Shown: one piece after another, positions 36,299-56,026 of the stretch
How the letters are laid out: the number at the start of each line of letters is the position of its first letter
How positions within the stretch are numbered: position 1 is the first letter of the stretch
Assembly: GCA_944391435.1 (NCBI GenBank)
Contig: CALXTP010000004.1
Span: 2,303 to 66,302, forward strand
DNA length: 64,000 nucleotides
Direction of reading: 5' to 3'
Source of the DNA: an uncultured Alphaproteobacteria bacterium
GTDB taxonomy: Bacteria > Pseudomonadota > Alphaproteobacteria > RF32 > CAG-239
The notes under the pieces: model-generated
The model's input: the letters and a program-made list of their open reading frames with translations, nothing else
Told to the model about the DNA's origin: nothing
Database searches by the model: none
Program-made: the position numbers and the translations under genes

Positions 36299-37861
36299 TT
36301 GATGACCGGTTCTTTTTTATCTTTCTTCACAACCGCCACCCGCAAGCTGGATATTCTCCAACAAAAACAAAATCTAATTTTTATATGCAGTTGCACACTT
36401 TTCGCGCTCATAACAATAACGCGCATATTCACCGCTAATTATTTCTTTTTTGATACGGCCGAACATATACATGCCTCATGGCTGGTCAGCATCGGGAAAA
36501 TCCCCTATCGGGATTTTTTTGAACATCATAATCCGTTGCTGTGGTTTTGCCTTGCCCCGCTCACGCAACTGTTTGAAAGAAAGATTTGCCTGATTTTCAT
36601 TGTTCGTTTTGTTGCCGTTATAAGTTGGGCAGCCTGCCTTGCCGTTATATACAAGATAAGCCGAAAATTTTTGTATGACAAACCAAAAGCGCAACTATCC
36701 GTATTGATTTTATTGTCAATCCCCTCCATTTGGGCTGATGCCATAAATATCCGCCCAGACACCTTTATGCTGCTAAGTTTTTTAATGGCCGTATATTTCC
36801 TGTATAATTATCTGGACGGTGCCGGCAGGGCTTCATTGGCTATTTCATATATCTGCTTATCCCTGTCTTTCCTGTTTTTACAAAAAATGCTGTTTCTTGG
36901 CATGGGATTCGCAATAGCCAACCTGTTATTATGGCAACAAAAAAAGATTAAAACGGCCGATATTTGCCTCGCCGCCCTGTATGCGCTTATCCCTCTGATA
37001 ATTTTTCTTTTTTACCTGATAGACAATGATTGTCTGCACACCTGGTTTTACTACAATTTTCCGTTCAACACCCAGCTGAAAAGTTTTTACAAATCCTATA
37101 CATCTGGCCTTTCCGCCCGGCTGGGCACTTTTACAGCCTTATCGCTGCTCGTTTTGGCCAGGTGGTTCCGTCCGACTTGGCAAACGCTTATTATCTGTTG
37201 TTGCGGAATAAGCGCTTTGATGATGGTTAAATTTTTTGCCCCGCACCCCTGGTATTACGTCCCCTATTGGGTATTCGCATCAATCCTTTTAGCCGGCATT
37301 ATCGGCAAAAGCAAATATTTTAGTTTATGGTTTGCCATAATCCTGTATTGCTTCCTGAACACATCAGCAGCACTTCTTCCCAAACAGCACAATATTCTTT
37401 TCGCCCAGACATTGCAAAACATAAAAGATATTATGGAGCATTCTTCAAAACAAGACACCGTGCTCAATCTAAAAAAGGAAACCATCCACCTGTTTAACCA
37501 CGACGCCTTTTATCATTGGTTCGGTTTTCATAATGTTGCTATTTGCGATGCCATCTACAACCGGAAACAGTATTTTGATATAAACACCGCCATAAAAAGC
37601 GCCAAACCGGATATTATCATTTTCGACGGCAATTCATTTTTCCCGGTTGCCCACGATGTTGTTATGACGCAGCGTGAAAACTATCGCATTGCCAGAAACC
37701 AGCATATTATCCAAAAAGCAAGAACGTTCCCGGCAATACTGTCCAAAATAAGCTATCCGCAAGATGACTTCTGGAAAGTTGATAAAAAATGGATAAAACA
37801 GCATTATCAAAAAATAGAAAACACCGATATCTGGAAAAAGCGCCCCGTTCCCGGAACATAA
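36299..37861 (+). CDS. Polytopic membrane protein, putative GT-C-fold glycosyltransferase (paralog 1 of 3)
   Basis: About 11 TM helices and a C-terminal soluble domain. The first extracytoplasmic loop carries the conserved EHIHASWLV..PYRDFFEHHNPL shared with the paralogs at 45489 and 46993. Confidence 0.5.
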   Translation: MMTGSFLSFFTTATRKLDILQQKQNLIFICSCTLFALITITRIFTANYFFFDTAEHIHASWLVSIGKIPYRDFFEHHNPLLWFCLAPLTQLFERKICLIFIVRFVAVISWAACLAVIYKISRKFLYDKPKAQLSVLILLSIPSIWADAINIRPDTFMLLSFLMAVYFLYNYLDGAGRASLAISYICLSLSFLFLQKMLFLGMGFAIANLLLWQQKKIKTADICLAALYALIPLIIFLFYLIDNDCLHTWFYYNFPFNTQLKSFYKSYTSGLSARLGTFTALSLLVLARWFRPTWQTLIICCCGISALMMVKFFAPHPWYYVPYWVFASILLAGIIGKSKYFSLWFAIILYCFLNTSAALLPKQHNILFAQTLQNIKDIMEHSSKQDTVLNLKKETIHLFNHDAFYHWFGFHNVAICDAIYNRKQYFDINTAIKSAKPDIIIFDGNSFFPVAHDVVMTQRENYRIARNQHIIQKARTFPAILSKISYPQDDFWKVDKKWIKQHYQKIENTDIWKKRPVPGT

Positions 37862-37864
37862 AAA

Positions 37865-37941
37865 TGGTGTCAGCGGCGGGACTCGAACCCACTACCCACA
37901 GTTTAGGAAACTGTTGCTCTATCCTGATGAGCTACGCCGAC
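37865..37941 (-). tRNA. tRNA-Arg (anticodon CCU)
   Basis: Hand-folded 77-nt cloverleaf on the minus strand: 7-bp acceptor stem, D-arm GCTC/GAGC, anticodon loop TTCCTAA, T-arm GTGGG-TTCGAGT-CCCGC, discriminator A, encoded CCA. Confidence 0.85.
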
Positions 37942-40633: not shown

Positions 40634-40737
40634 GGCCTCTCCGCAAAAACAACGTCCTTTATCCCTGTTTGTATACCAATCTGTTGAATAATCAATAATA
40701 AAATAAATTTATTGCCGCTTTTCCTCAGGCACACAAA

Positions 40738-43086
40738 TCATTGTACCGCCGCTGCCGGAGCCGGAGCAACATTCGCTGCCGGTGCTGCCTCTGCCGGAAC
40801 CGGAGCCGGTGCAACATTAGCCGCCGGGGCTACCTCTGCCGGAACAGGAACCGGCGCAGCATTCGCTGCCGGTGCTGCCTCTGCCGGAACAGGAGCCGGC
40901 GCAACATTCGCTGCCGGTGCTGCCGCTGCAGGAACAGGAACCGGTGCAACATTCGCTGCCGGAGCCGCCTCTGCCGGAACCGGAGCCGGCGCAGCAACAT
41001 GTGCCAAAGGAACATTCCTCACTTCATTGTTAAAAGAACGCATCTCCCCGTTATCATCCATTTCCAAAATCAAATCATCTGTCGGAGCATAAACACGGTT
41101 AGATTCAGCCGGCTGCGAAGCTGAAGCTTTCCTCCCTGAATTTACATTTCTCTCTGCGCCAAAAACTTCTTTATTCTTTTGCTTCGCCTGCAATTTTTTC
41201 TGGTACGTCTGGCTTTTTTGCTTATAAACCTCATACCAATCCCGATAATTGGCGGCAATGTTAGATATTTTGCTGCCACGTAAAACCGAATTGTTAATCA
41301 AATTCTGTTTCAAGCTGACGGCTTCATCAGGCTGCATTTTCATATTATCAATCGTATAGCAATAATCCTGATAACGGATAAGTGTTTTTGTAAAATCGCT
41401 CGCCAGGCAGATATTGGCATTAATCAAAAATTTCGGCCGTTTACCTTTGCGTATGGCCAGGCTGACCAATTGATCCTTCACAAAGTTTGCATATCTGCCG
41501 CCGGTCATTCCCGCCAATTCGCGAATATTGCTCACGCCTTGTACAATAACATCGGTTTTACGGCTCTTGGGGCTGGCCTGCATCTCATCCATATATTCCT
41601 GCAGTTTGCCGATAACACACTTGGCCTGGTCGGCATATGCCTTTCGTTTTTCGTCAATACCGCCTCTGGTCAATGAATTATCTTTCATCGCCACCCATTC
41701 TTTCCGCGGTTTCAAATTGCAAAACTCATCATATATATAAATATCGGAAGGCAAATCCACATAAACCATATAAACTTGTCCCCATGGATCCCTGATATAA
41801 TCTTCCGTCACTTCATCAATCAGGCTGACAGCCCCTTCCTGTGAAACCCGGCGATTCTCAGCCGTAACTTTATACCCTCTGATAGCAGACATCCCCGCCA
41901 GCAAATCTGCCACCGACTTCAATTCCTTGCTTTTAATGCTCAGCACCCATTCGGCCAGCAGGGCATAAACATTTTGTTCCAAAGTCCGGTTAGAATCATA
42001 CAACGGCACCGTTTTATAACTTTTAACCACACATCTGTCCGTATTCAGATTGTTGCCCGTAACACAAAAATTAAACCCTGGCATGGCATAAGTGCTGAGC
42101 CCATAGCCGTTTTCCCGCAAATAATCATACAAACGGTTTTCCTCCAGGCTGAAATAATCCAGTCCGCCGTGAATAAACTCCCATTTATTGATAAACTCCG
42201 AATATGCCCGATTCCCGCTGGTTGTACTGGTATAGTCAACTTGATTAAAGATATCAATAATATTGCTTACCGTATCATTTTTCTTAACAAAAGCATTCGG
42301 ATAAACTTCAAAACCGTTAATGGCAAAAAAGCCAATCATCAAATCGCGCAACTCGCGCAAATTATGGTCTTTCATACTGCTCAAAAACTGATAAGACGGA
42401 AAACGCGGCAGCATAAAATAAACCATATTTCCTTCCCGGTCTTTGCCTGCCTGTGAAGCAAGTGCTTTAACTTCCGTATATTCCCCTTTGGGCTGTTGGA
42501 TAAACTCGTTATTTTTAATACCCAATACGCCGGCAAACATCAAAACCATCGTAACAAAAAGCATGGCAAATGTTGAGCGAAAAGCAAAAAAGATAATAAC
42601 GCCCAACAACAAGCCGACCAGCCATGTACTGGGAACAATGCCGATAAAAGTCAGCCAGCTGGCTTTTTTTTCCAGCCACTTTTCAATAAACGTATCCGCA
42701 TCAAACAACGCAAACTGGTAAAAGAATACGATTGTCACCAAAAGTGTTACCACCGCGCACACGACATTTTGTACATCTTTTGAAAAAGATAAAATCAGCA
42801 TAAGCAAAAAGGCAACAACAAAAACCCCGCCGCAAATAACCAACACTGCTTCATTAACTTTGCCGTTTTCAATCAATTTGCCGTTGATGGAATAAATAAA
42901 CATCACAAAATCTATTGTAAACAGCAAAAAGATATAAAAAGCTCGCAAAAACTTATCATAAAAGTGGTTGGCATTTCCCGTCCAGCTGGCAAATCTGCTT
43001 GAACGGCTTTTTTTTCTTAAAACCAAAGGCTGATTAACTCCCTCGTTCATAATTCCCTCTGTCAAAATTGGACTTTTGTTTACCAT
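40738..43086 (-). CDS. Large membrane protein: 5-6 N-terminal TM helices, roughly 450-aa extracytoplasmic domain, C-terminal Pro/Ala-rich 15-aa tandem repeats
   Basis: 782-aa ORF. The C-terminus carries the repeat APAPVPAEAAPAANV about 5.5 times. The globular domain was not recognised. Confidence 0.55.
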   Translation of the reverse strand: MVNKSPILTEGIMNEGVNQPLVLRKKSRSSRFASWTGNANHFYDKFLRAFYIFLLFTIDFVMFIYSINGKLIENGKVNEAVLVICGGVFVVAFLLMLILSFSKDVQNVVCAVVTLLVTIVFFYQFALFDADTFIEKWLEKKASWLTFIGIVPSTWLVGLLLGVIIFFAFRSTFAMLFVTMVLMFAGVLGIKNNEFIQQPKGEYTEVKALASQAGKDREGNMVYFMLPRFPSYQFLSSMKDHNLRELRDLMIGFFAINGFEVYPNAFVKKNDTVSNIIDIFNQVDYTSTTSGNRAYSEFINKWEFIHGGLDYFSLEENRLYDYLRENGYGLSTYAMPGFNFCVTGNNLNTDRCVVKSYKTVPLYDSNRTLEQNVYALLAEWVLSIKSKELKSVADLLAGMSAIRGYKVTAENRRVSQEGAVSLIDEVTEDYIRDPWGQVYMVYVDLPSDIYIYDEFCNLKPRKEWVAMKDNSLTRGGIDEKRKAYADQAKCVIGKLQEYMDEMQASPKSRKTDVIVQGVSNIRELAGMTGGRYANFVKDQLVSLAIRKGKRPKFLINANICLASDFTKTLIRYQDYCYTIDNMKMQPDEAVSLKQNLINNSVLRGSKISNIAANYRDWYEVYKQKSQTYQKKLQAKQKNKEVFGAERNVNSGRKASASQPAESNRVYAPTDDLILEMDDNGEMRSFNNEVRNVPLAHVAAPAPVPAEAAPAANVAPVPVPAAAAPAANVAPAPVPAEAAPAANAAPVPVPAEVAPAANVAPAPVPAEAAPAANVAPAPAAAVQ
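40741..40995. repeat. 45-bp tandem repeat array, about 5.5 units, coding
   Basis: Units gcaacattcgctgccggtgctgcctctgccggaacaggagccggc with point variants. Near-identical to the array at 44600..44865. Confidence 0.85.
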
Positions 43087-43164
43087 ACGCCATATTTATT
43101 AAATAAAAGCTTAACCTATTTAAAAAGCCGAAAAATTTTCTAAAAAAAATAATCACTATTATTC

Positions 43165-43192
43165 TTGAATTTAAAAAAAAATCCCCTATAAT
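43165..43192 (+). promoter_or_regulatory. Near-consensus sigma70 promoter of ssrA
   Basis: TTGAAT (43165-43170), a 16-nt spacer, TATAAT (43187-43192). The predicted TSS is about 43199. Confidence 0.5.
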
Positions 43193-43199
43193 TCTTCTT

Positions 43200-43506
43200 A
43201 GTATGTGCTTCGGCACACACTTTGATACGAAAAGCCGCATGAAATAGATATATTGGACCCGGGGGCGGTACCCGGCACCTCCACCATAGACGGGGGTGAA
43301 ACAGGTTTGACAGTGTATAGTAAAGATGCGTGGGCTGTATTCGGCAAGACACCACCGTTATCGGTTCAAATCAAATAAACGCAAATGATAATTTTGCACC
43401 GGTTGCCGTAGCCGCATAAGGCAAAGCAACAAATGAAATTCTTCTGGTTATGGTTAACCGGGAGTGGGGAAGGAGCCGCCCAGCAACAGAAGGGCTCATT
43501 TTATTT
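43200..43506 (+). ncRNA. ssrA: tmRNA (ssrA), circularly permuted two-piece type as in alphaproteobacteria
   Basis: The acceptor 3' end GGCACCTCCACCA ends at 43286 after a T-arm CCGGG-GGCGGTA-CCCGG. Five nt later the 5' acceptor strand GGGGGTG (43292) pairs with CACCTCC and includes a G3:U70 pair. The tag ORF GCA AAT GAT AAT TTT GCA CCG GTT GCC GTA GCC GCA TAA (43381-43419) gives ANDNFAPVAVAA. A terminal hairpin at 43473-43497 is followed by a T-rich run. Confidence 0.75.
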
Positions 43507-43531
43507 AATATCTGCAGAAAGACATTTGGGA

Positions 43532-43996
43532 ATGACAGAATTTGTAACCGAAATAAATTATGACAAGCTGATTGAAAAGGCCTTAAAACAAGTTGTCGTT
43601 GAAGCATTAAAGATTGCGGAAGCGCAAGGGCTCCCCGGAGAAAACCATTTTTACATTACATTTAAGACAAATTTCCCCGGCACCTCCGTTCCAAGTGATT
43701 TGCAAATCCAATACCCGGAAAATATGACCATCGTTTTACAGCATCAATATGCCAATCTCCGGGTCGGAACCGATTCTTTTTCTGTTGAGCTGAGTTTTGG
43801 CGGCCGCCCGCAAACGCTCGTCATTCCTTATGACGCCATCACCTATTTTGCCGACCCGTATGCCAAATTCGGTTTGAGCTTTTCGTTTTATGAAAACGGC
43901 GACGTCCACTCGCTTGATGAAATTGAACCTGAAAAGAAAGTTGCCGGCGAAACCGCACAAATTATCTCCTTTGACAGCTTTAGAAAGAAAAAATAA
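43532..43996 (+). CDS. sspB: ClpXP adaptor SspB (stringent starvation protein B-like)
   Basis: HFYITFKTNFPGTSVP...IVLQHQYANLRVGTDSFSVELSFGGRPQTLVIPYDAITYF parallels E. coli SspB HLVVDVTLPGVQVP...IVLNIAPRAVGNLELANDEVRFNARFGGIPRQVSVPLAAV. The basic C-terminal tail ...SFDSFRKKK resembles a ClpX-binding peptide. The start is taken at Met 43532. Confidence 0.6.
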   Translation: MTEFVTEINYDKLIEKALKQVVVEALKIAEAQGLPGENHFYITFKTNFPGTSVPSDLQIQYPENMTIVLQHQYANLRVGTDSFSVELSFGGRPQTLVIPYDAITYFADPYAKFGLSFSFYENGDVHSLDEIEPEKKVAGETAQIISFDSFRKKK

Positions 43997-44229
43997 TGCA
44001 AAAATATTCCGTTGTTATTGCCGGAAAACATTACACCAGCATTTCTTTGGAAAAAGAATTTTATCAGCAGCTTAACATATTGGCATTGGAACAACGCAAG
44101 CCCGTAAACCAGTTGATTACGGAAATTGACAGTACAAAAACCGTTTCCAACTTATCGTCGGCACTACGCCTTTATATATTAAAATCCTTGCAAGACAAGC
44201 TCAACTGCTTGGAATCTTCCGTTTCATAA
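43996..44229 (+). CDS. Ribbon-helix-helix domain protein (RHH_4 family)
   Basis: GKHYTSISLEKEFYQQLNILALEQRKPVNQLITEID...NLSSALRLYIL matches the RHH_4 pattern (HxTSxxLExxFWxxL...LIxEID...NLSSAxRLFxL). Confidence 0.6.
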   Translation: MQKYSVVIAGKHYTSISLEKEFYQQLNILALEQRKPVNQLITEIDSTKTVSNLSSALRLYILKSLQDKLNCLESSVS

Positions 44230-44251: not shown

Positions 44252-45397
44252 TTAAAGGCCGCCATCTTCATCCGCTGCTTCCGGCAAAACGGGATTTTCC
44301 GTTATACTCTCCAAAGACTTTTCTGCTGCATTTTCCGATAAAGTTTCGCTTTGGATATCTTTATGCTCCCCTTCATTCTTCACCGCATCGCCTGTTGCTC
44401 GCGACTCAGCTTCTTCCTCAGAAACTGCTTCAGACTGTGCCTTTAGCAAATCGGCCAATCCTCCGGCCGATACAGCACCATGCAATTCAATTTCTTGGGC
44501 ATGGCTTGTTTCCCGATTGGTTTCATCTGATTTTTCAACAACTGCTTCCGCATCTGCTGCACCTTCTTTAACCTCTGCCCCTGCCGGCGATTCGCCTGCT
44601 ATGGCATTCGCCGCTGGTGCCGCCCCTGCCGGAACAGGAGCCGGCGCAACATCTACCGCCGGAACAGCCTCTGCCGGAACCGGAGCCGGCGCAACATCCG
44701 CCGCCGGTGCTGTCGCTGCAGGAACTGGAGCCGGCGCAACATTCGCTGCCGGTGCCGCCTCTGCCGGAACTGGAGCCGGCGCAACATCCGCCGCCGGTGC
44801 CGCCTCTGCCGGAACTGGAGCCGGCGCAACATTCGCTGCCGGTGCTGCCTCTGCCGGAACAGCTATATCTTCAGCAGCAATACCTTCTTTAACATCCTCC
44901 CCTGTGGACGGCATTTCAGCATCTGTACTTATCGCAGGCGCCACACCTTCTTTTACTTTTTTAAATCCGCCCTTTCTCTTCTTAAAATCAATTTTACCCT
45001 GTTCTGCCTCTTTATCCCGGGATAGTTTGGCATTATAATTTTCGCTCTTCGGACGTGCAGCTTCAGCCGCCTCCTCTTCCATCTTCCGCTTGGTTTCCTT
45101 AACTTCCTGAACAATAGCATCCGGAATAAAGCCGGTATCGCCGCTTTCTACAGCCTTGGTAACCGCCTCAAATTTAAATGCCTCATATTTATTCTGATAC
45201 CAAGTCAAAATTTCTTCCGGTTTAACCCCCTGACTCATCGGATAATATGCTGCGCCTCCGGCAGCCAACGCCAAAATAAACAATATCCACAGCGGATGCC
45301 TGAGAATAAACAGCAACACAAAAATCGGAAAAGTGATAACACTCAGCACTATATAAAAAAATCTGAACAAACTACTCCGTTTTTTCGGCTCGGCCAT
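44252..45397 (-). CDS. Membrane-anchored protein with Pro/Ala-rich 15-aa tandem repeats and an acidic C-terminal tail
   Basis: Two N-terminal TM helices, a K/E-rich segment, about 6 repeats of AAPAANVAPAPVPAE, then a D/E/S-rich tail. Confidence 0.55.
   Translation of the reverse strand: MAEPKKRSSLFRFFYIVLSVITFPIFVLLFILRHPLWILFILALAAGGAAYYPMSQGVKPEEILTWYQNKYEAFKFEAVTKAVESGDTGFIPDAIVQEVKETKRKMEEEAAEAARPKSENYNAKLSRDKEAEQGKIDFKKRKGGFKKVKEGVAPAISTDAEMPSTGEDVKEGIAAEDIAVPAEAAPAANVAPAPVPAEAAPAADVAPAPVPAEAAPAANVAPAPVPAATAPAADVAPAPVPAEAVPAVDVAPAPVPAGAAPAANAIAGESPAGAEVKEGAADAEAVVEKSDETNRETSHAQEIELHGAVSAGGLADLLKAQSEAVSEEEAESRATGDAVKNEGEHKDIQSETLSENAAEKSLESITENPVLPEAADEDGGL
44600..44865. repeat. 45-bp tandem repeat array, about 6 units, coding
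   Basis: gcaacattcgctgccggtgccgcctctgccggaactggagccggc and variants. The same repeat family as 40741..40995. Confidence 0.85.
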
Positions 45398-45488
45398 TTT
45401 TTCCTCCCGGCTTTTCCGTTATTGACAATACCTTAATCATAGACGCAGATGTTTAAAACATACTTAACGGCAGTTTGCTAAATTGCCA

Positions 45489-47030
45489 TCAATCTTCATA
45501 AGACCACTGTCCTGTCGCCACATTCAGGACACACTTTTTCTGCTCATATTCCGGTTTCAAACGATAGATAGAACCAAACCTTGTCGGCTGATAGTATTTT
45601 TCAACAACAGCCGGATCAATATAGTGTACAACTTCCGGTTTTCGCGTTTCATCGGAAAATTTGTTAAAATAGCTCCGCCCGTAGATAAATTTAGGCCTTA
45701 AACGCAAAATAAGCCCATTCACGTCAGGTTTCGGATAAATTCCCGTTTCTTCACCGATAACATCAAGTTGCCCGATAAGCTGCCAATAATAGGCCGGATC
45801 TTTGCCAAATAAATTGTACATCATGCCATCGCCATTAAAAACATAATCACAAGGGTTGATGGAGCGTGCAATATAGTCCGGCAAATATTCCCGCCCGTTC
45901 TGAGACAAAATCAGTCCCCGTTGAAACAAAAACACATGATAAAAAGCAAAATACAATCCGGCTATAATCAGCCAAACAACCAAATGGCACTTTTCATAAA
46001 GCCTCGCCAACAGCGGAACAGCGCATAAAACCGCAAAATAAAGCAACAGCCAATAATAATACGAATATGGCGAAAAATAAAATTTCCGCTGCACAAATTC
46101 CGCGACAAACAACAAAGCAATAACCCGCCAATATCGGTTTTTGCCCCAAAGAGCCACCACCGTTCCCACAAAAGCAGCCACAGACCAGACCAACATATAT
46201 GTCGGCAGTTCAACCACCCGGCCGAGATCAAACCCCCGTTCCAAATTCAGATTAAACGTATAATTGGAATCATAATAAAGCCCGACCATATCATAATGCA
46301 CCAAATACAAAATAAAAACGGCCACCATGAGTAACGGCAGAATCATGGCTCTGGCCATATCTGCCGTCTTAATGTATTTTTTGTACCAAAAATAAAGCCC
46401 CGTAATCCCCAAGACAGCCAGCGGAAACAACGCCTTTTGTGCAAAAAAGAACGATAATGCAAACCAAACGAACGCCACCGCCAGATGCCGAAAATTTTGC
46501 TGTTTGAGATACAAAAAATAATAATAAAGCCCTCCCGTCAGGCAAAAAACCATATAATTATCCGGCCGAAAATCCACGGCATACAGCTTATAACTCGGCG
46601 TTGCAATAGCGGCCGCGGCCACTACGCCCCACAGTTTATTGCTCAAAAATTCGGCATTTATGCGATATACATACACCAGCGACTTCAAAAAAACCAAAAA
46701 GGAAATCAGGCACACAACTTCCGTTATCGTTGCATTATAAGCAAATAAAGCCGTTAATGGCGCAAACAGATACCACATCAGCGGATTATGGTGCTGGAAA
46801 AAATCCCGATAAGGCACCAGCCCCTGCATAATCAAAAAGCTGGAATGGATATGCTCTATATTATCCCCGTTTTGCGTCGGCACATGCGCCGTCATCATCA
46901 CATACATAATAGATACGGATACCAGATAAACCCCCAACGCCCCGAAAGCACCGAATTTATCTATAAGTGCATAAAAAGACCGGCCCATTTGTTTAATTCT
47001 TTCCATATTGCCAAACTCCCGTCTTTTCAT
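45489..47030 (-). CDS. Polytopic membrane protein, putative GT-C-fold glycosyltransferase (paralog 2 of 3)
   Basis: EHIHSSFLIMQGLVPYRDFFQHHNPLMWY motif and about 11 TM helices. The start is uncertain (47030, 47006 or 46988). Confidence 0.5.
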   Translation of the reverse strand: MKRREFGNMERIKQMGRSFYALIDKFGAFGALGVYLVSVSIMYVMMTAHVPTQNGDNIEHIHSSFLIMQGLVPYRDFFQHHNPLMWYLFAPLTALFAYNATITEVVCLISFLVFLKSLVYVYRINAEFLSNKLWGVVAAAAIATPSYKLYAVDFRPDNYMVFCLTGGLYYYFLYLKQQNFRHLAVAFVWFALSFFFAQKALFPLAVLGITGLYFWYKKYIKTADMARAMILPLLMVAVFILYLVHYDMVGLYYDSNYTFNLNLERGFDLGRVVELPTYMLVWSVAAFVGTVVALWGKNRYWRVIALLFVAEFVQRKFYFSPYSYYYWLLLYFAVLCAVPLLARLYEKCHLVVWLIIAGLYFAFYHVFLFQRGLILSQNGREYLPDYIARSINPCDYVFNGDGMMYNLFGKDPAYYWQLIGQLDVIGEETGIYPKPDVNGLILRLRPKFIYGRSYFNKFSDETRKPEVVHYIDPAVVEKYYQPTRFGSIYRLKPEYEQKKCVLNVATGQWSYED

Positions 47031-48564
47031 CTTTTACACAATCGCGTCGGATATATTCTTTTTTCAGGCGATATAATCCGCGCGGATATTCAAAATAAAC
47101 CTCTTTCTGAAGTTCAAAATTCCATTTTCCGTCGTTGACGATTTCCGTCGGCTCATATAATTTATCCAGCACCTCCTTATTAAAGGTATAAATTGTTTGC
47201 TCTTCATCAAAAAAACTCTTTATATCATCAACCCAGATAAACTTAGGGCGATATTTTTGGATAAGCGCACCATAATCATCATAATCATGCAGCCCGATTT
47301 TTGCACCGACAATCGACAGACGCCCCGGAATAAACCAATAATATTCCGGAGTTTTGCTAAACAAAAACAAAATTCCACCATTGCCTGTTAAAACATAATC
47401 GCACCGGTTTGTTTGTTCCCACAAATACTCCAAAACCGTCTTGTGATATTTATAAACAATATCATTATAAAAGCACATACCCATATAAATAAGATAACAC
47501 TGTATCTCCACAAACACGATAAGCAGCAGGATTTTCCATTTTTCTGCCAATTTCATGACACCGGCAGCAGCTAACGGAACGGCAAAGAAATACGCTTCGT
47601 AATAGTAATAAACATGTGGGGAAAAATAAAAGACCTTGCTGGCATAAATAAGTACAAACAGCCACACCCAGCAACGAAAATACCGCCCCATATATTTATA
47701 CAGGGCAATTCCCGAAAATATCGCCGCGCCAAACATAATATTGGCAATATCCCAAGCTCTGTTTATACGCCTGTCGCCAAATAGATCCACCATCTCCCGG
47801 TTAAAAGCAAAATTCATTTGATAGTAAACATCCCATAAACCGGCAGACCATAAATACAAAGCAAGGCACGCCGCACTGGCCAGCGGAAAAATAATGGCTG
47901 AGCCAAAATCGCGCCATTTCATTTCCCGCGTATAAAGAAGCCAGCCAGACCAAACCGCAACCAATGGAAAATAAAACAACGCCTTTTGGCAAAACAAAAA
48001 AGCAACCCAGAAAGCGGCATACGAAAAAATCAAATCGCGGCGTTTCTTATCGCGCATATAGCAAAACAGATAATATATGCCCGCCATAACGCAGGTAAAC
48101 ATATAATTATCCGGCTTGAAATAAACATAATACAAAAATATTCCGGGCGCCAGCAGCATCAACACGGATAACAAAGCCGCCGTCCGCCCGCTTAAAAACT
48201 CCGTAATAACTTTATATAAAAAAACAAGCCCTATAACAAAAAACAAAAAAGTGATATAATTAACGACTCCGAATACATGAATATTTCTCTCAAGTAAACC
48301 TACAACCGGAGCAAACAAATACCATAACAGAGGATGATGATGTTCAAAAAAATCACGATACGGCACAGCCCCCTGATGGACTAAAAAACTGGCCTGGATA
48401 TGTTCGGCAATATCGCCTTCCGCCCACTCAAAATACACTGTAGCAAGGCTGACAAGCCCCAATATCACCAATAAATTAACAAACAGGGTAGCATCAATCC
48501 ATATCGGAAAGCGCCGCCACACCGTCTGCCAAATATTTTCCAGTCCGTGTTTCACGTACCCCAC
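46993..48564 (-). CDS. Polytopic membrane protein, putative GT-C-fold glycosyltransferase (paralog 3 of 3)
   Basis: EHIQASFLVHQGAVPYRDFFEHHHPLLWY motif. GTG start 7 nt after the malQ stop. Confidence 0.5.
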   Translation of the reverse strand: MGYVKHGLENIWQTVWRRFPIWIDATLFVNLLVILGLVSLATVYFEWAEGDIAEHIQASFLVHQGAVPYRDFFEHHHPLLWYLFAPVVGLLERNIHVFGVVNYITFLFFVIGLVFLYKVITEFLSGRTAALLSVLMLLAPGIFLYYVYFKPDNYMFTCVMAGIYYLFCYMRDKKRRDLIFSYAAFWVAFLFCQKALFYFPLVAVWSGWLLYTREMKWRDFGSAIIFPLASAACLALYLWSAGLWDVYYQMNFAFNREMVDLFGDRRINRAWDIANIMFGAAIFSGIALYKYMGRYFRCWVWLFVLIYASKVFYFSPHVYYYYEAYFFAVPLAAAGVMKLAEKWKILLLIVFVEIQCYLIYMGMCFYNDIVYKYHKTVLEYLWEQTNRCDYVLTGNGGILFLFSKTPEYYWFIPGRLSIVGAKIGLHDYDDYGALIQKYRPKFIWVDDIKSFFDEEQTIYTFNKEVLDKLYEPTEIVNDGKWNFELQKEVYFEYPRGLYRLKKEYIRRDCVKDEKTGVWQYGKN

Positions 48565-48571
48565 CCTCTTG

Positions 48572-50707
48572 CTAGCGCCATTTTTTCACCGCGGCAATAT
48601 GGCGATGATACATTTCGCTGTCCGCAATATCTTCTACCTCAACCGGAAGTTTGCTGCGCCAATTCGGATATAAGGGCACATCTGTCCCCGGCAGGTTTTG
48701 TATCTTCTCGGATTGGAAAATATCTTCCGGCTGCAACATAAACACTTCGCTGTTGGATTTTGCCATATAGGCATGAACAGCTTCTTCAATCCCCTCCGGA
48801 TAGCCGTCGCCGTAAAGATAATCAGATTTTCTCAACCGGTCCGCCGGCCATACGCCCTCGCCGTCCAATGCCTGCAGCAAAAGCCATCGTTCATGCTCAC
48901 GCCAGTGATACCCGTTCTGCATTTCCTCTTCGGTATATAGGCCCAACTCATGCATCAAGCCGATTTCCCTGGCATACCACCAGGCTTTTAACGGCGGCAT
49001 ATCATGTGTCCCGACTGAAGCGAAATAAGCACGCTCATATTCTTCCGGCTTTTTCATTGTGCCGTTTTCATCTTTACGTTCAACCCACAACACGCCGAGA
49101 GAATAAATATTACGTTCCCGGAGCATATCCTGAAAACCGTCCGACACATTGCCGATACATTCGCCGACCACGACACATTTGTTCAAATAGCTTTCCAGCG
49201 CCAAAATATTGAACATATCCTCGGCATTATACATCAGATACGTTCCTTCTTCGCCTTTGTCGGGAATCAAATACAAACGTGAAAGCCCCATCACATGGTC
49301 AATCCGAACAGCTCCGGCATAACGCATATTGGCGCGCAAAATACGGATAAACGGCTTATATGCCCGTTCTTTGAGTTCAAAAGGGTTAAACGCCCCCAAC
49401 ATCCATTTCTGCCCGATGGGAAAGCTGTTATCCGGCGGCGCCCCTGCACCGCTGTCTTGCATATAAAGATACTTATCGCCCCACACTTCGGCACTGTTTT
49501 TGGAAACGCCTACCGGCAAATCCCGATAAAGTCCGACAGCCAGGCCGCGTTCTTTTATTTTAGTAAAAACTTCCTGCAGCTGCCTGTCTGCCTCAAATTG
49601 TAAAAATTTGAAAAAATCTATCTCTTCGCTGTGCCCGGCCACAAATTTTTCCATTTCGTTGCCCATAGACATTTTATCAATGCTTTTAACTTTTTTTTGC
49701 CCGTTCTTTTGGGCATTGTGCCTCATTTCTTCATACGCCTGAAAAACAGCCAGCCTCTGCAATTCTCCCGTATCATTCGCCGCAAATTCTTCAAATTTTT
49801 TGTAATAATCGGATTTGCGTTGCTTCATCACCCGTGCAAAAATACGCCGCAAAGCCTTTATCTTCGCCGTATAAACTGTCGTATAGTCAATATTTTCGCT
49901 TTCCCTGGCCGTGGCAATTGCCGCCTCGTCCTTATCCTGCGCCTCATAAAAAGGCACCCTTTCCACATCAATATAAATCGGATTTAAAAATAAACGGCTG
50001 ACCGATGCATACGGGCTGGCACATTCGGGATAATCATGCTGTAACACATTAAGCGGGTTAAGCCCGATAATATCGCCGCCGCTTTGCGCCAAAACATCAA
50101 CCATCCGGCTCAAATCCGTAAAATCACCCACGCCCCAATTCCGGCGGCTTTTCAGCGAATACAGCTGCAGCGCAAAGCCAAACAATTTATCTTTGCCTTT
50201 CTTATCCAACCCATAACATGTACACGGAGCCACCGCCAATATGGTCTTATATGTAGCTTTGGCCGTTTTAACATCTATGTCATAATATCCGGGCGCCATA
50301 TCGGCGTCAATATCATAGCGCAATTTAACATATGACGTACGAGATTCTTGCCTTTTCTCCATTTCGGTCAAACACCCCGGCAACGGTTGAAAATCTCCGC
50401 TTCCTTCCGGCGCATAAAAAAAAGCTGCTCCGCTCTCGGCTTCCTTTTCCGTCAACACGATATCAATATTTTTATTATCTGTTTTTCGCACATACACCAC
50501 GTCCAAAGCATATTGCCAGCGCTTTTTTTCTATCCTTTCCAAAGACTTGCGGATTTCCTCGTCGTTTTTGGCATGATAGCCGAGGCTTTCAATAAAAAAG
50601 CGCACCAAGTCATCGCTGGCTTCTCGGGTTTTAACAGAACCGCATGTATATGTAAAACGGGTACAAACGCCCAATTTTTCCGCCAAAACGTCTAAAATTC
50701 CGCTCAT
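48572..50707 (-). CDS. malQ: 4-alpha-glucanotransferase (amylomaltase), long MalQ form
   Basis: 711 aa with the GH77 catalytic region (RIDHVMGL..., GECIG, GTHDMPP). Confidence 0.9.
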   Translation of the reverse strand: MSGILDVLAEKLGVCTRFTYTCGSVKTREASDDLVRFFIESLGYHAKNDEEIRKSLERIEKKRWQYALDVVYVRKTDNKNIDIVLTEKEAESGAAFFYAPEGSGDFQPLPGCLTEMEKRQESRTSYVKLRYDIDADMAPGYYDIDVKTAKATYKTILAVAPCTCYGLDKKGKDKLFGFALQLYSLKSRRNWGVGDFTDLSRMVDVLAQSGGDIIGLNPLNVLQHDYPECASPYASVSRLFLNPIYIDVERVPFYEAQDKDEAAIATARESENIDYTTVYTAKIKALRRIFARVMKQRKSDYYKKFEEFAANDTGELQRLAVFQAYEEMRHNAQKNGQKKVKSIDKMSMGNEMEKFVAGHSEEIDFFKFLQFEADRQLQEVFTKIKERGLAVGLYRDLPVGVSKNSAEVWGDKYLYMQDSGAGAPPDNSFPIGQKWMLGAFNPFELKERAYKPFIRILRANMRYAGAVRIDHVMGLSRLYLIPDKGEEGTYLMYNAEDMFNILALESYLNKCVVVGECIGNVSDGFQDMLRERNIYSLGVLWVERKDENGTMKKPEEYERAYFASVGTHDMPPLKAWWYAREIGLMHELGLYTEEEMQNGYHWREHERWLLLQALDGEGVWPADRLRKSDYLYGDGYPEGIEEAVHAYMAKSNSEVFMLQPEDIFQSEKIQNLPGTDVPLYPNWRSKLPVEVEDIADSEMYHRHIAAVKKWR

Positions 50708-50717
50708 AAATCTCTCC

Positions 50718-52790
50718 CTATTTCTTTATTTCAAAACACAACACCGACCACGCCGGAACCCATATTTCGGCAGCCGAAGAGCAATTTTCAGTTTCAAATT
50801 TTCCCGAACTGTCCAACAGCAGATTCCATTTATAAGATTTCTTAAAATGCGGCAATTTCCATTTCAAACTGTTGGCCTGTGCGTTCAAAATGACCATAAA
50901 CATTTTTTCCCTTGCCGCCACTACATAAGATAACGACTTGCGATTCGCCTGATACCAGTCATTTCCGGAAAATTCCGTTCCCTTTTCGGTAAACCAGGCC
51001 AAATCTTTTGTCCCGTTTTTATCAATAGCCGTTCCGGTAAAAAAGTTCTTACGGTTAAAGACCCCCATTCTTCTCCGCAGCCGTATCAAATTTTTGACAA
51101 ACCGCACATTGGCAATTTCTTCGGAACCGATGGCATCCCAAACCAGATAAGATATAACGTTATTCTGGCAATAGGCATTGTTATTGCCGAACTGTGTATT
51201 CATAAACTCATCGCCGGCGCGCAACATCGGCGTACCGAAAGAAAGCAATAATGTGCTCATCATCGCCCTCTGCCGCTGTTTGCGGTTTTCTAAAATGTCT
51301 TTATTATCGGTCAATCCTTCAAAGCCGGAATTATAACTCCAGTTGGCATCGGTACCGTCGCGGTTATCTTCGCCGTTAGCCTGGTTATGCTTATGGTTAT
51401 AGCTAACCAGATCATACAGTGTCATACCGTCATGCACGGCCAGATAATTAACGGAACTCCAGATTGTCCGCTGGCTCGGTCCGAAAATATCGCTGGATCC
51501 CGAAAGCCTGCTGGCTAATTCTCCGATTTGCCGGTCATCGCCGCGCCAGAACCTCCTGACAACATCGCGATAACGGTCGTTCCACTCCATGCTGCCGGGC
51601 GGAAAAGCGCCCAGCTGATAACCGCCTATGCCGACATCCCATGGCTCGGCAACCATTTTAACCAGTTGCAAAACCTCATCTTGCCGCACGGACATCATAA
51701 AACCGCTGCTTTGGCTGAACTCCTGCTTAACACGCGCCAGCGAAGTTGCCAAATCCAGCCGGAATCCGTCCACATGCATTTCCTCCACGAGATAACGCAT
51801 TGAATCCATCACCAGCGTCAGGACATATGGATTCTGCAAATTAAACGACGCGCCGCAACCGGTACTGTCATAATAGTAACGCTTGTTGGTGCCGTCCAGA
51901 GTATAATAGCTTTCGTTATCTATGCCGCGATAGCAGAGTGTCGGGCCCAAGTGATTGCCTTCCAGCGTATGGTTATACACCATATCCAAAATAACTTCCA
52001 ACCCGTTTTCATGAAACCTCTTTACCATTTTCTTAAAATTGCTGATATCGGCATTCACCATATAGCTTGGTTCCATCGCAAAGAAATTCAGCGTTTCATA
52101 CCCCCAAAAATTCTCCTTTTGCCCGGCGCTCCGCTCTGCCATAAAAGCATTAACCGGCATCAGCTCCACCGAAGTAACGCCCAGCCACTTCAGATAGCCG
52201 CAAACGCTGCGGCTGGCCAGACCGGAAAACGTTCCCCTCTTGGCATCCTGAACTTTCGGATGCATGCGCGTATACCCTTTAACATGCAGTTCATAAAAAA
52301 CGGTCTTTGCCGCATCAACCTGTGGCGGCACATCTCCTTCCCAGTCAAAATCGCTGCTGTCCGTTACCACCGACTTCGGAACATACGGCGCACTGTCCAG
52401 CGTGGAAAAAGAAAGATCCTTATCCGGACTATCAACATCATAGCCGAATATGGCTTTATGCCAAAGCAGCCGGCCAACCAGCTTTTTCGCATAAGGATCC
52501 ATCAACAGCTTATTTGGATTAAACCTTTTCCCCTTCGCCGGTTCATACGGCCCGTAAACACGATAGCCGTAAACCTGCCCGGGTTGCACCCCTTCAAGGT
52601 AAATATGCCAGATATTATTCTCACGCACGGGAAGCTCATATCGCGCCAGCTCTTTAACGCCGCTCTTATCAAACAGGCATAGCTCAACCTTTGTTGCGCC
52701 GGCCGAAAACAAAGCAAAATTAACACCCCACTCGTCAACGGTTGCGCCCAGCGGATAAGCGCGCCCTTCCCATACTCTGATATCTGGCAT
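50718..52790 (-). CDS. glgX: Glycogen debranching enzyme
   Basis: N-terminal PLGA...GVNFALFS, GH13 motifs (DMVYNHT, GFRLDLA, EPWD, YLAVHDG). Confidence 0.9.
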   Translation of the reverse strand: MPDIRVWEGRAYPLGATVDEWGVNFALFSAGATKVELCLFDKSGVKELARYELPVRENNIWHIYLEGVQPGQVYGYRVYGPYEPAKGKRFNPNKLLMDPYAKKLVGRLLWHKAIFGYDVDSPDKDLSFSTLDSAPYVPKSVVTDSSDFDWEGDVPPQVDAAKTVFYELHVKGYTRMHPKVQDAKRGTFSGLASRSVCGYLKWLGVTSVELMPVNAFMAERSAGQKENFWGYETLNFFAMEPSYMVNADISNFKKMVKRFHENGLEVILDMVYNHTLEGNHLGPTLCYRGIDNESYYTLDGTNKRYYYDSTGCGASFNLQNPYVLTLVMDSMRYLVEEMHVDGFRLDLATSLARVKQEFSQSSGFMMSVRQDEVLQLVKMVAEPWDVGIGGYQLGAFPPGSMEWNDRYRDVVRRFWRGDDRQIGELASRLSGSSDIFGPSQRTIWSSVNYLAVHDGMTLYDLVSYNHKHNQANGEDNRDGTDANWSYNSGFEGLTDNKDILENRKQRQRAMMSTLLLSFGTPMLRAGDEFMNTQFGNNNAYCQNNVISYLVWDAIGSEEIANVRFVKNLIRLRRRMGVFNRKNFFTGTAIDKNGTKDLAWFTEKGTEFSGNDWYQANRKSLSYVVAAREKMFMVILNAQANSLKWKLPHFKKSYKWNLLLDSSGKFETENCSSAAEIWVPAWSVLCFEIKK

Positions 52791-52828
52791 ATACCCTCTC
52801 TCTAAATTTTAAGACACCTGACAACCGT

Positions 52829-55126
52829 TTATCTGATACGTTTGATGACAATGGTTGACAACGGCGGCAGGACAACATTGATGGAATGCGGACGACCGTT
52901 GGCTCCCTCGTCGGAGGCATATATCTCGCCTTCGTTCTTAACGCCACTTCCCCAATAGTTTTTATCATCGCTGTTAAAGATTTCCTGATAAACGCCGCCA
53001 TCCGGAACACCGAGTCTGAAATCATGTCTGACCACCGGTGTAAAGTTGCTGATGACAATCATATAATTATTATAATCATGTCCGCGGCGGATATAAGAAA
53101 TAACACTGTCATTGGCATCGGCATGGTCAATCCATTCAAAGCCTTTGCTGTCAAAATCTTCTTCATAAAAAGCAGAATTTCCTTTGTACATCAGGTTCAA
53201 ATCGCGCACGCAGTTTTGCATTCCTTTATACATCGGATATTGCAGCAAATGCCACCGCAGGCTCTCGTTGGAATTCCATTCCCAATCCTGCCCGAACTCG
53301 CACCCCATAAACAACAGCTTTTTGCCCGGATGTGTCCACATAAACCCGTAATAGGCACGCAGATTGGCAAACTTCTGCCATTCGTCGCCCGGCATCTTAT
53401 ACAGCATGGAGCCTTTGCCGTGAACCACTTCATCATGTGAAATCGGCAGGATGAAATTTTCATTAAATGCATACAACAAACCAAACGTCAGTTTGCCGTG
53501 TTCATATTTGCGATATACGGGGTCTTTGCTGATATATGTCAGCGTATCGTTCATCCATCCCATATTCCACTTAAAGCCGAAACCGAGCCCGCCCATAGAT
53601 GTCGGACGCGATACCATCGGCCACGCCGTTGATTCTTCGGCGCAAGTCATAATGCCGGGACAAGTGCCATAGCACAATTCGTTCATCTTACGGATAAACG
53701 ATATGGCCTCCAGATTTTCGTTTCCGCCATAAATATTCGGTACCCATTCGCCGGGTTTGCGGGAATAATCCAGATAAAGCATAGACGCCACCGCATCAAC
53801 ACGCAGCCCGTCAATATGATATTCTTTCAGCCAATACAAAGCGCTTGAGCACAAGACATTGCTGACTTCTGTCCGCCCGTAATTGTAGATTTTCGTTCCC
53901 CAATCTTTATGCTCGCCTTTGCGCGGATCGGCATGCTCATAAAGATGTGTGCCGTCAAACTCTACCAGCCCGTGGCCGTCTTTCGGAAAGTGTGCCGGCA
54001 CCCAATCCATAATGACGCCGATATTGGCCTGATGGAATTTATCAATCATATACCGGAAATCATCAGGATTACCGAAACGCGACGTCGGCGCAAACAAACC
54101 GGTTACCTGATATCCCCACGAAGCATCAAGCGGATGTTCACAAACCGGCAAAAATTCAACATGCGTAAATCCCATATTCATAACATAGGGGACCAAGCTA
54201 TCGGCAAGTTCGCGATACGTCAAAAATTCGCAACCGTCTTTCCCTTTTCTGCGCCATGAGCCGAGATGGACTTCATAAATGCTCATCGGGCGGTCAAAAC
54301 TGTTGTAAGATGCACGATACTGCATCCAATCATTATCTTTCCATTTAAAATGGTTCAAATCATAAACAATGGAAGCCGTCCTCGGACGCACCTCGGCATA
54401 AAAAGCCATCGGGTCGCTCTTTGTCAGGATATACCCTTCATGTGTTTTGATTTCGTATTTATAAAGTTCGCCTTCTCCGATGTTCGGGATAAAGATATCC
54501 CACACGCCGCAATTATAATGCTTGCGCATAACATTTACGCGTCCGTCCCAGTTGTTAAAAGCGCCGACAACCGAAACGCGTTTAGCGTTCGGAGCCCAAA
54601 CCGAAAAAGCGACACCCTTCACGCCGTTTAACTCCAGCAAATGCGCACCGAGTTTTTTATACAGGTCAAGATGGTTTCCCTCGGCAAAAAGATATTCGTC
54701 AATATCGCCCAGCGTAGAAGGGAAAGAATAGATATCCTCTTCCTCATACGTTTCATTTTTATCATTGGTAACTCTGAATTTGTGTTTAAAATTTTCCGTA
54801 TTCATAACACCGAGATTTATCTGGTAAAAACCTCTGTCGTCCAGTTTTGTCATCATGCCCAGCGAATTGCCGTTTCCGTCCAAAAGCTCAATAGACTTCG
54901 TTTTCGGCTTATAAGCGCGGATAAAGACTTCCTTGCTGCCTTTATCGCGATGAATGCCCAGCACGGCCATTACATTTTCATAATCACCGTTAATAATGCA
55001 TTCCATTTCTTTTTGTGAAAGCAGATTTTTCATATTCTTCCCGTTGCAAGAACTCAATACCGCAAAATTCTGCGGCTGTCCGTTTTTTTCAGATTTTACA
55101 GTTTGATTTTGAACTGTGCTGGCCAT
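52829..55126 (-). CDS. glgB: 1,4-alpha-glucan branching enzyme
   Basis: GH13_9 motifs ([30 protein letters not shown]) and the N-terminal ...MAVLGIH. Confidence 0.9.
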
Positions 55127-55751
55127 AACTATAACTCCAATAGATAAACAAAAAATACATCACTGGATATGTATAAAACAAAACAAAAAAATTGCAAGAA
55201 TTTTGTCGTTGATTTCCTCTGTTTACAAAACATTTTTTCTTTTAAAAACAACAAGCTTATGTTTTAAAAACACTTTTGCTTTTCTCTGCGCCTAAATAGC
55301 TTCGTCTTTTCTTTCGCACGCGGAAAAAATATTTCACATTTTTTCCGGCATCGGATATCGTCTCTTATATAATCCGGCCGTCTGCTTTTTGCGATATGTT
55401 TTTTGCACAAGAAACGAAAAAAATTTTTTTTTATTTTTTTTTGCTTTTTTTGCCGGACGCCCGCCGGAAACTGTCTTTTTTTTCGCTCTTCTTTTTAACT
55501 TAAAATTAAAAAAATTAAGGCGCTAAAACAAAATGTTAACACCGTACACAACAAGTCGTCAGACAGATATTTCGGGTACATTTTAACAGCTTGAAAAAAT
55601 TTTATTTTTCCTGTTTTTTTTAATCTTTTTTTAATCTATTTATGTATATACAATGACTAACAACAACAAACGATGAAATTCGTATTTACAAAATAAAAAT
55701 TATATTTATACTTAACCTTGTTTTATAACACAAATTATTTGGAGAATTGAT

Positions 55752-55973
55752 ATGACATTCAATGAAAACTTAATCAGAGAAGCTGCTTACTACAACTGGC
55801 AGAATGCAGGCTGCCCTTTTGGCCAGGATGAAAAATTCTGGAATATGGCAATTGAGCAGATTTATGGCTCAAAGGCTACTAAATCCTGCTGCAGCTCTTC
55901 TTCTTCTTCCAAGAAGACGGCTTCTTCCAGCAAAAAAACTTCTTCTTCTTCTAAATCAAAATCCAAGAAGTAA
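55752..55973 (+). CDS. DUF2934-family small protein with a Ser/Lys-rich low-complexity tail
   Basis: IREAAYYNWQNAGCPFGQDEKFW matches the DUF2934 core. A GGAG RBS lies upstream. Confidence 0.55.
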   Translation: MTFNENLIREAAYYNWQNAGCPFGQDEKFWNMAIEQIYGSKATKSCCSSSSSSKKTASSSKKTSSSSKSKSKK

Positions 55974-55996
55974 GATGTGCTGAAAAGCAAAAAAAA

Positions 55997-56026
55997 GGAC
56001 CACCTTGACCAAGGTGGTTTTTTTAT
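55997..56026 (+). terminator. Rho-independent terminator
   Basis: Hairpin ccacctt-gacc-aaggtgg followed by T8. Confidence 0.7.

Follow-up and report, generated by a model that had tools for sequence, protein, structure and literature searches.

Genes for glycogen metabolism are known from classical glg clusters such as E. coli glgBXCAP and Pseudomonas glgA-treYZ-glgX-malQ. The adjacency of glgX and malQ is particularly well known, and includes gene fusions (PMC11046441). A review of prokaryotic alpha-glucans names amy and pgm as extra functions of glg clusters; GT-C genes are not among them, and the single mention of GT-C comes in a general account of glycosyltransferase folds (PMC11046441). 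The stretch analyzed here, a 64,000-nt window from an uncultured alphaproteobacterium (all coordinates are numbered on the whole window), resembles the classical clusters in having equivalog-level glgB, glgX and malQ genes arranged as an operon. It departs from them in that the block has no glgC, glgA or glgP and in that same-strand genes for membrane glycosyltransferases of the GT-C fold (M3 and M2) follow, with the gene for a Pro/Ala-repeat membrane protein (PA) behind them. We consider it fairly likely that two distinct modules lie end to end, a cytoplasmic glycogen operon and an envelope glycosylation module similar to ArnT and Rgt systems. Literature searches on RF32 and glycogen, and on GT-C enzymes and alpha-glucan export, found no description of this arrangement. 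The juxtaposition of glg and GT-C genes thus appears not to have been described before, although the evidence at hand does not make it a new system.

The closest described counterparts of the membrane proteins are ArnT (GT83) and RgtA, RgtB, RgtC and RgtD of Rhizobium, GT-C enzymes that decorate lipid A and the lipopolysaccharide (LPS) core from polyprenyl-phosphate sugars. The ArnT pathway uses a sugar donor carried on polyprenyl phosphate, and RgtA and RgtB provide the precedent for LPS modification (PMC4402001). The M family (M2, M3 and a third paralog, M1) shares with ArnT and Rgt proteins conserved acidic residues just after the first transmembrane helix (TM1), and with Rgt proteins the occurrence of several paralogs per alphaproteobacterial genome, some of them in tandem. 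In Rhizobium, rgtA and rgtB are likewise tandem paralogs. Unlike ArnT, however, the family matches no ArnT model in NCBIfam and there are no arn genes (arnBCADTEF) in the window; no arn-type or rgtE-type donor-synthesis genes are near M2 and M3, and all members of the family come from uncultured Alphaproteobacteria of the gut and rumen. Its likeness to PMT (GT39) consists of a weak PMT_2 match and of the GT39 annotation that some databases give to its homologs. On the other side, there is no PMT (PF02366) or MIR match, sequence identity is about 10%, the loops in the model are short, M2 falls under the Pfam cut-off for PMT_2, and nothing points to a protein acceptor.

The nearest precedent for the arrangement as a whole is Aeromonas, the only documented Gram-negative example of glycogen-type enzymes supplying a surface glucan that depends on a lipid carrier. 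There, the surface alpha-glucan is made by GlgA, exported through WecP and ligated by WaaL (PMC8625153, PMC11046441). The Aeromonas system differs in using a phosphoglycosyltransferase and an O-antigen ligase in place of ArnT/PMT-like GT-C enzymes, and no WecP/WecA-type or WaaL-type gene was found by Pfam among the scanned open reading frames (ORFs) of the window.

The features of the block, its upstream region and the third paralog are as follows.

glgB, 52829..55126, minus strand: 1,4-alpha-glucan branching enzyme, 765 aa
glgX, 50718..52790, minus strand: glycogen debranching enzyme, 690 aa
malQ, 48572..50707, minus strand: 4-alpha-glucanotransferase (amylomaltase), 711 aa, long E. coli-type form
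M3, 46993..48564, minus strand: GT-C fold membrane glycosyltransferase, 523 aa; probable start GTG 48555
M2, 45489..47030, minus strand: GT-C fold membrane glycosyltransferase, 513 aa; probable start ATG 47006
PA, 44252..45397, minus strand: Pro/Ala-repeat membrane protein, 381 aa
repeat array in PA, 44538..44950, no strand assigned: 45-nt (15-aa) repeat, 9 register copies, 66-85% identity
glgB upstream region, 55127..55757, minus strand: AT-rich, GC 0.38; presumed promoter region of the block
M1, 36299..37861, plus strand: third paralog of the M2/M3 GT-C family, 520 aa; stands alone outside the block

The identities of the three glucan enzymes, assigned from their sequences, are solid. All score above the equivalog cut-offs of NCBIfam: GlgB with 1018 bits for NF003811 (cut-off 741), GlgX with 908 bits for TIGR02100 (cut-off 641) and MalQ with 402 bits for TIGR00217 (cut-off 206). 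GlgB has the Pfam domains GlgB_N, CBM_48, Alpha-amylase and Alpha-amylase_C, MalQ matches Glyco_hydro_77 at 6e-105, and the NCBIfam glgX-malQ fusion models PRK14510 and PRK14507 also match. None of the three proteins has a hydrophobic segment, and so they are taken to be cytoplasmic.

The ORF list reproduces the six tightly spaced, co-oriented minus-strand genes of the initial annotation, with the same coordinates and gaps: 38 bp between glgB and glgX, 10 bp between glgX and malQ, 7 bp between malQ and M3, a 38-bp overlap of M3 and M2, and 91 bp between M2 and PA. Reading of the junctions suggests later starts for both membrane genes. An AAGAGGG Shine-Dalgarno sequence directly follows the malQ stop, ahead of GTG 48555, which is probably the M3 start and would make the malQ-M3 gap 16 bp; M2 most likely starts at ATG 47006, behind GGGAG, which reduces the M3/M2 overlap to 14 bp. 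Gene calls from the same species agree with both starts (in this comparison M2 was represented by P0001, which is 98% identical), and the overall picture is unchanged by them. A scan for consensus promoters and terminators found neither kind of site in the intergenic gaps, in agreement with the earlier statement that the block contains no terminator. Over the whole block, however, such sites occur at chance level (29 promoter-like sites vs 25.7 +/- 6.0; 20 terminator-like sites vs 16.4 +/- 4.1), and the scan is therefore uninformative on internal promoters. It is thus the spacing, as read at the junctions, that makes co-transcription from glgB to PA plausible in the window. A promoter upstream of glgB is plausible because of the 630-bp AT-rich spacer there, which is bounded by a divergent small DUF2934-like gene; at its downstream end the block converges on an ssrA-sspB-RHH unit.

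Gene order and the malQ/M junction in relatives

A search with M3 of 5.8 billion proteins gave 74 related clusters, a few of them named 'glycosyltransferase family 39 protein [Alphaproteobacteria bacterium]'. A genome scan with one genome per GTDB species gave 409 relatives, and the best 77 of the 409 loci were analyzed for synteny by tblastn and ORF analysis. All 77 come from gut or rumen metagenome-assembled genomes (MAGs) that are labeled Alphaproteobacteria, 'Acetobacter sp.', Rickettsiales or Rhodospirillales. The order glgB-glgX-malQ-(M3)-M2-PA, with all genes in the same orientation, was found in 31 species, so that orthologs of the membrane genes are indeed linked to glg genes elsewhere. 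M2 orthologs are 51-88% identical across these species; M3, which forms the sister group of M2, is present in about ten of them.

The junction between malQ and the membrane gene is not uniform. Of the 31 species, 18 carry a strong hairpin (dG about -20 to -25 kcal/mol) 10-60 nt past the malQ stop; its consensus fold has 14 pairs, eight of them with compensatory double changes. A U-rich tail follows the stem in about ten species. Species with a single M gene have the hairpin, and so do species with two (L003 and L004); the remaining hairpin loci are L012-L014, L016-L018, L020, L021, L025, L032, L034, L037, L041, L042, L050 and L056. The window lacks it, as do the closest relative of the window (L001) and about 11 other species. 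We also considered whether it could be a generic repeated element. This was rejected: the motif, GGCAGRR-N(3-12)-YYCTGCC, is found once per locus and solely at the malQ/M junction, with no occurrence in the window. In relatives the hairpin thus sets the glg trio apart from the membrane genes in the manner of a terminator. Its function may be that of a terminator, of a processing or stability element, or of an attenuator acting on the M gene.

Two outgroup lineages (L085 and L086), whose MalQ is about 50% identical, have a minus-strand DUF2934 gene divergent from glgB-glgX-malQ and neither M nor PA downstream, and in one of them a canonical bidirectional terminator immediately follows malQ. As judged from gene order, the closed glg operon of three genes represents the ancestral state. 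The proposal of a single uninterrupted unit accordingly holds for the window, with respect to strand, gaps and lack of a terminator, and does not extend to the relatives with the covarying hairpin or to these outgroups. As a separate observation, a 309-aa GT2 gene (10227-11156, minus strand) converges on malQ in L086, right past the terminator, and is of the size usual for polyprenyl-phosphate glycosyltransferases.

Does conserved adjacency to malQ mean a shared function? The rest of the family serves as a control. A neighbor-joining tree of 100 members separates into eight orthogroups, and the genomic context is particular to each and invariant within it (the identities of the neighbors were confirmed by Pfam). 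One orthogroup follows DUF47-PiT, a phosphate transporter, and the gap between PiT and M has a median of 10 bp (25 species). One pair has the fixed order nth, M, M, uvrC, pgsA with an M-to-uvrC gap of 0 bp (n=4), and another pair the order TPR, M, M, nagB (n=13); grpE followed by M is a further fixed context. Between malQ and M, by comparison, the median gap is 33 bp and the range -32 to 211 bp (n=30). Placement on the same strand close to unrelated housekeeping genes, at equal or tighter spacing, is thus usual for the family, and conserved adjacency cannot be read as a sign of function in this clade. Collinearity, moreover, extends over about 20 kb throughout the clade (MFS on the minus strand, then glgB-glgX-malQ-M-PA, then sspB on the minus strand, then X782-permease-ATPase). 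It takes in clearly unrelated and opposite-strand genes; gene order in the clade is static in general.

A second linkage of the family to glycogen genes was also considered. In L080-L082 (P0047 and P0049) a distant M1-like homolog stands after grpE, in divergent orientation to a pair formed by a long glgA (677 aa) and pgm. This neighborhood was rejected as an independent glg linkage, since the homolog is M1-like, follows grpE and is divergent from glgA; the proximity is probably a coincidence.

The GT-C family and the PA protein

M2 and M3 are paralogs with 33% identity over their full length, and M1 is 27% identical to both. Against Pfam PMT_2 (PF13231, gathering cut-off 26.1 bits), M1 (43.8 bits) and M3 (28.4 bits) score above the cut-off and M2 (22.2 bits) below it, the weak match spanning the first loop and the TM region. 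The scan against NCBIfam matched neither ArnT nor any other GT-C subfamily model; its sole match was the Leptospira LA_3751/3752 family, at a sub-threshold 20.9 bits. A family sequence profile searched against PDB sequences gave only noise (E 0.3 or worse), and fold comparison alone placed the family. The AlphaFold model of M3 is confident (predicted local distance difference test [pLDDT] 87, predicted template-modeling score [pTM] 0.88), and in a Foldseek search of the PDB its top matches are all GT-C enzymes, among them STT3, ArnT, ALG9, DPY19, Pmt4, AftA and PglB. ArnT has the best reciprocal TM-score (0.55/0.53). The 'GT-C-like' label of the initial annotation is therefore borne out, no assignment to a non-glycosyltransferase fold having been found. 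As the fold search points to GT-C enzymes and the sequence profile to no solved structure, the family is a remote GT-C branch: a new, divergent and lineage-restricted member of the superfamily whose fold is closest to ArnT, PMT and ALG enzymes.

An alignment of 26 diverse members shows D51, E54, H55, D71-F-F, H75-H76 and P151-D152 to be invariant, as well as a conserved Cys pair in the C-terminal soluble domain. D51, E54 and H55 fall within residues 45-63, right behind the helix formed by residues 2-44 (TM1) of the model. In GT-C enzymes the catalytic acidic residues are located just after TM1, and these three residues may well have a catalytic role. Known GT-C enzymes draw on polyprenyl-phosphate-linked sugars or oligosaccharides at the outer face of the membrane, not on cytoplasmic polymers. 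No initiating phosphoglycosyltransferase or ligase gene, as represented by Pfam families, was found among the scanned window ORFs.

Across loci L019-L077 we observed about eight GT-C orthogroups per genome, in fixed contexts. So many conserved paralogs in small genomes suggest the stepwise building of a glycoconjugate by a periplasmic assembly line. It may be added that a tRNA gene (37868-37941, minus strand) lies 7 nt past the stop of M1, on the opposite strand.

PA has no Pfam or NCBIfam match. A HMMER search with residues 1-135 found 55 representatives among 1.84 billion proteins, with the domain N-terminal in all. What is conserved is a K/R-rich N-terminus, then a transmembrane hairpin whose turn reads [RK]HP, a helical region of roughly 80 aa and a basic patch, KKRxGFKKK; in the window protein the patch reads KKRKGGFKK and precedes an acidic disordered tail. 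By the positive-inside rule both ends are predicted to be cytoplasmic, so that the tail is probably cytoplasmic. The tails of the orthologs are acidic and disordered, with species-specific repeats (e.g. EEVKAEEVAPEVVT or NGAEKNG), and an 'AGGL..LLK' motif is conserved in mid-tail. About three quarters of them end in hydrophobic-x-hydrophobic-Phe, as in ELDLF, EFDLF or DLKLF; the pattern is [DE]-[LFM]-[DEKNQ]-[LFI]-F-COOH (orthologs P0176-P0225; loci L003-L056). The window protein lacks this tip and ends in EDGGL. The tip may resemble the beta-clamp motif QL[SD]LF and acidic tips of the SSB type, and it suggests a docking function.

The Pro/Ala repeats were tried as a conserved functional feature of PA and rejected, since the orthologs carry unrelated acidic tails; in most species Pro and Ala make up 0.05-0.2 of the tail, and a value as high as 0.35 is found only in the species of the window. 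Glycosylation of the repeats (the initial annotation had offered glycosylation of the PA-repeat proteins as a candidate) cannot be the conserved function, given that the window repeat (APAPVPAEAAPAANV) contains no Ser or Thr and that orthologs do not have it; the tail is, besides, predicted to be cytoplasmic. The same 45-nt repeat is common to the PA tail and the 3' end of X782, a gene 3.5 kb away. Its copy number varies among close strains (PA has 325, 370 or 381 aa; X782 has 782, 807 or 830 aa), and such variation in two genes suggests repeat exchange or concerted evolution.

One pathway or two modules

In the two-module arrangement that we favor, glgB-glgX-malQ would branch, debranch and disproportionate alpha-1,4/1,6-glucan in glycogen or maltodextrin turnover. 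The second module, (M3)-M2-PA, would comprise inner-membrane GT-C enzymes from a clade-restricted, expanded family. By analogy with ArnT and Rhizobium RgtA-D, M2 and M3 would each most likely take a single sugar off a polyprenyl-phosphate carrier and transfer it at the periplasmic face to an envelope acceptor, for which LPS core or lipid A is most plausible and an envelope protein possible. The sequential ALG3/9/12 enzymes, also high-scoring in the fold search, offer an alternative analogy for the M set. PA would be an orphan protein anchored by its TM hairpin, with a tail that is probably cytoplasmic and, in most species, a docking-type tip. In the lineage of the window, where the RNA hairpin has been lost and M3 lies 7-16 bp past malQ, the modules are probably joined in one transcript, a fusion that would reflect genome compaction or read-through and not shared chemistry. 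Several observations weigh against this arrangement. Wherever M2 was seen (31 species), it lies downstream of malQ and in the same orientation, and PA comes after M2 at every locus long enough (26 M2-to-PA junctions were measured). About 13 species, including that of the window, have no hairpin and a malQ-M gap of at most 25 bp or an overlap; in these, co-transcription is likely and there might be selected co-regulation. The U-tract is missing in about eight of the 18 hairpin species, and the hairpin could for this reason be a processing or stability element and not a terminator. The M1-like homolog described above is, in another lineage, about 10 kb from glgP. Finally, no GT2 polyprenyl-phosphate glycosyltransferase and no GtrA/ArnEF-type flippase was found among the scanned window ORFs.

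The initial annotation had envisaged a pathway from glucan to envelope, in which all six genes cooperate and the glucan of GlgB, GlgX and MalQ passes, directly or via a lipid-linked intermediate, to M2 and M3 to form a surface or capsular alpha-glucan. The invariable same-strand linkage of M2 to malQ, its tightness in about 13 species, the terminator-free block of the window and the distant family member near glgA, pgm and glgP all fit this, and Aeromonas offers a precedent for a glycogen-like surface glucan that depends on lipid-carrier machinery (WecP and WaaL; PMC8625153, PMC11046441). The transporter of mycobacterial capsular alpha-glucan is, moreover, still unknown, so that the route of alpha-glucan to the surface remains open for that capsule (PMC11046441), and such a pathway, if true, would give a genetic handle on how a cytoplasmic alpha-glucan reaches the cell surface. 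We nevertheless regard it as rather improbable. The same family is equally tight and conserved beside PiT, uvrC, nth and nagB, in 18 of the 31 species malQ and M have a covarying hairpin between them, and the outgroups keep the glg trio without M or PA. The known donors of GT-C enzymes are polyprenyl-phosphate-linked, genes for an initiating phosphoglycosyltransferase, a flippase and a ligase were all missing from the scanned window ORFs, and glgA and glgC are not in the block. Very improbable, too, is the narrower proposal that ties M2 and PA to glycogen turnover through lipid-carried glucose or maltooligosaccharide that would be derived from MalQ and GlgX products and delivered to an envelope acceptor.

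M2 and M3 could also be PMT-like enzymes that glycosylate periplasmic or envelope proteins instead of LPS, with PA or X782 as possible partners or substrates and the glg link incidental. The database name 'glycosyltransferase family 39 protein' of some homologs, the constant position of PA after M2 and the presence of the PA repeat on a tail of X782 that is predicted to be periplasmic would agree with this. It is nonetheless unlikely: there is no MIR domain and no match to a hidden Markov model of the PMT catalytic family, the shared repeat is species-specific and without Ser/Thr, and the PA tail is predicted to be on the cytoplasmic side. A regulatory link is another conceivable explanation, in which glycosylation by M2 and M3 is co-expressed with glycogen turnover and no glucan is physically transferred; carbon excess, for example, could raise glucose-1-phosphate and UDP-glucose and thereby supply a polyprenyl-phosphate-glucose donor. 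Conserved co-orientation, loss of the hairpin with tight or overlapping junctions in about 13 species, and the GtrII-type glucosyltransferase genes that adjoin distant homologs are in its favor. As there is no evidence on the donor sugar, as the hairpin of most species argues for at least partial uncoupling, and as the paralog controls show the family to be commonly embedded in unrelated operons, we give this explanation very little credence. The paralog contexts, the hairpin and the outgroup trio favor two modules end to end, and the main value of the case is cautionary: in a compact and highly collinear clade, tight and conserved adjacency does not indicate a shared pathway. At the same time, the lineage-restricted GT-C family with its eight orthogroups, the orphan PA with its ELDLF tip and the PbgA/EptA-like X782 suggest an unusual envelope glycoconjugate biology.

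Neighboring genes

The features next to the block are as follows.

X782, 40738..43086, minus strand: 782 aa; separate unit with yejE/yejF-like ABC genes
repeat array of X782, 40703-41070: same 45-nt repeat as in PA
two-piece (permuted) transfer-messenger RNA (tmRNA) gene, 43161-43500, plus strand: Rfam alpha_tmRNA, 200 bits; immediately upstream of sspB
sspB, 43433-43996, plus strand: adaptor for ssrA-tagged proteins
RHH_4 gene, ~43996-44229, plus strand
DUF2934-like small gene, 55758-55979, plus strand: Ser/Lys-rich tail …SSSSSSKKTASSSKKTSSSSKSKSKK; divergent from glgB
bidirectional terminator of the DUF2934-like gene, 55993-56024

X782 has no Pfam match. Its model (pLDDT 74) has five TM helices and a periplasmic domain of the alkaline-phosphatase superfamily, for which Foldseek matches MCR-1, PbgA/YejM, EptA, LtaS and sulfatases. 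Since none of its invariant columns holds an obvious metal-binding or nucleophile residue, X782 may, on sequence grounds, be a PbgA-like non-enzyme. The gene is directly upstream of those for a yejE-like permease and a yejF-like ATPase, and homologs occur in gut and rumen metagenomes and in alphaproteobacterial MAGs.

The tmRNA match is further confirmation of an alphaproteobacterial origin of the DNA. The longest sspB ORF overlaps the tmRNA gene by 68 nt; the true start is probably later, because the SspB domain begins at residue 46. The divergent pairing of the DUF2934 gene with glgB is kept even in the outgroups L085 and L086.

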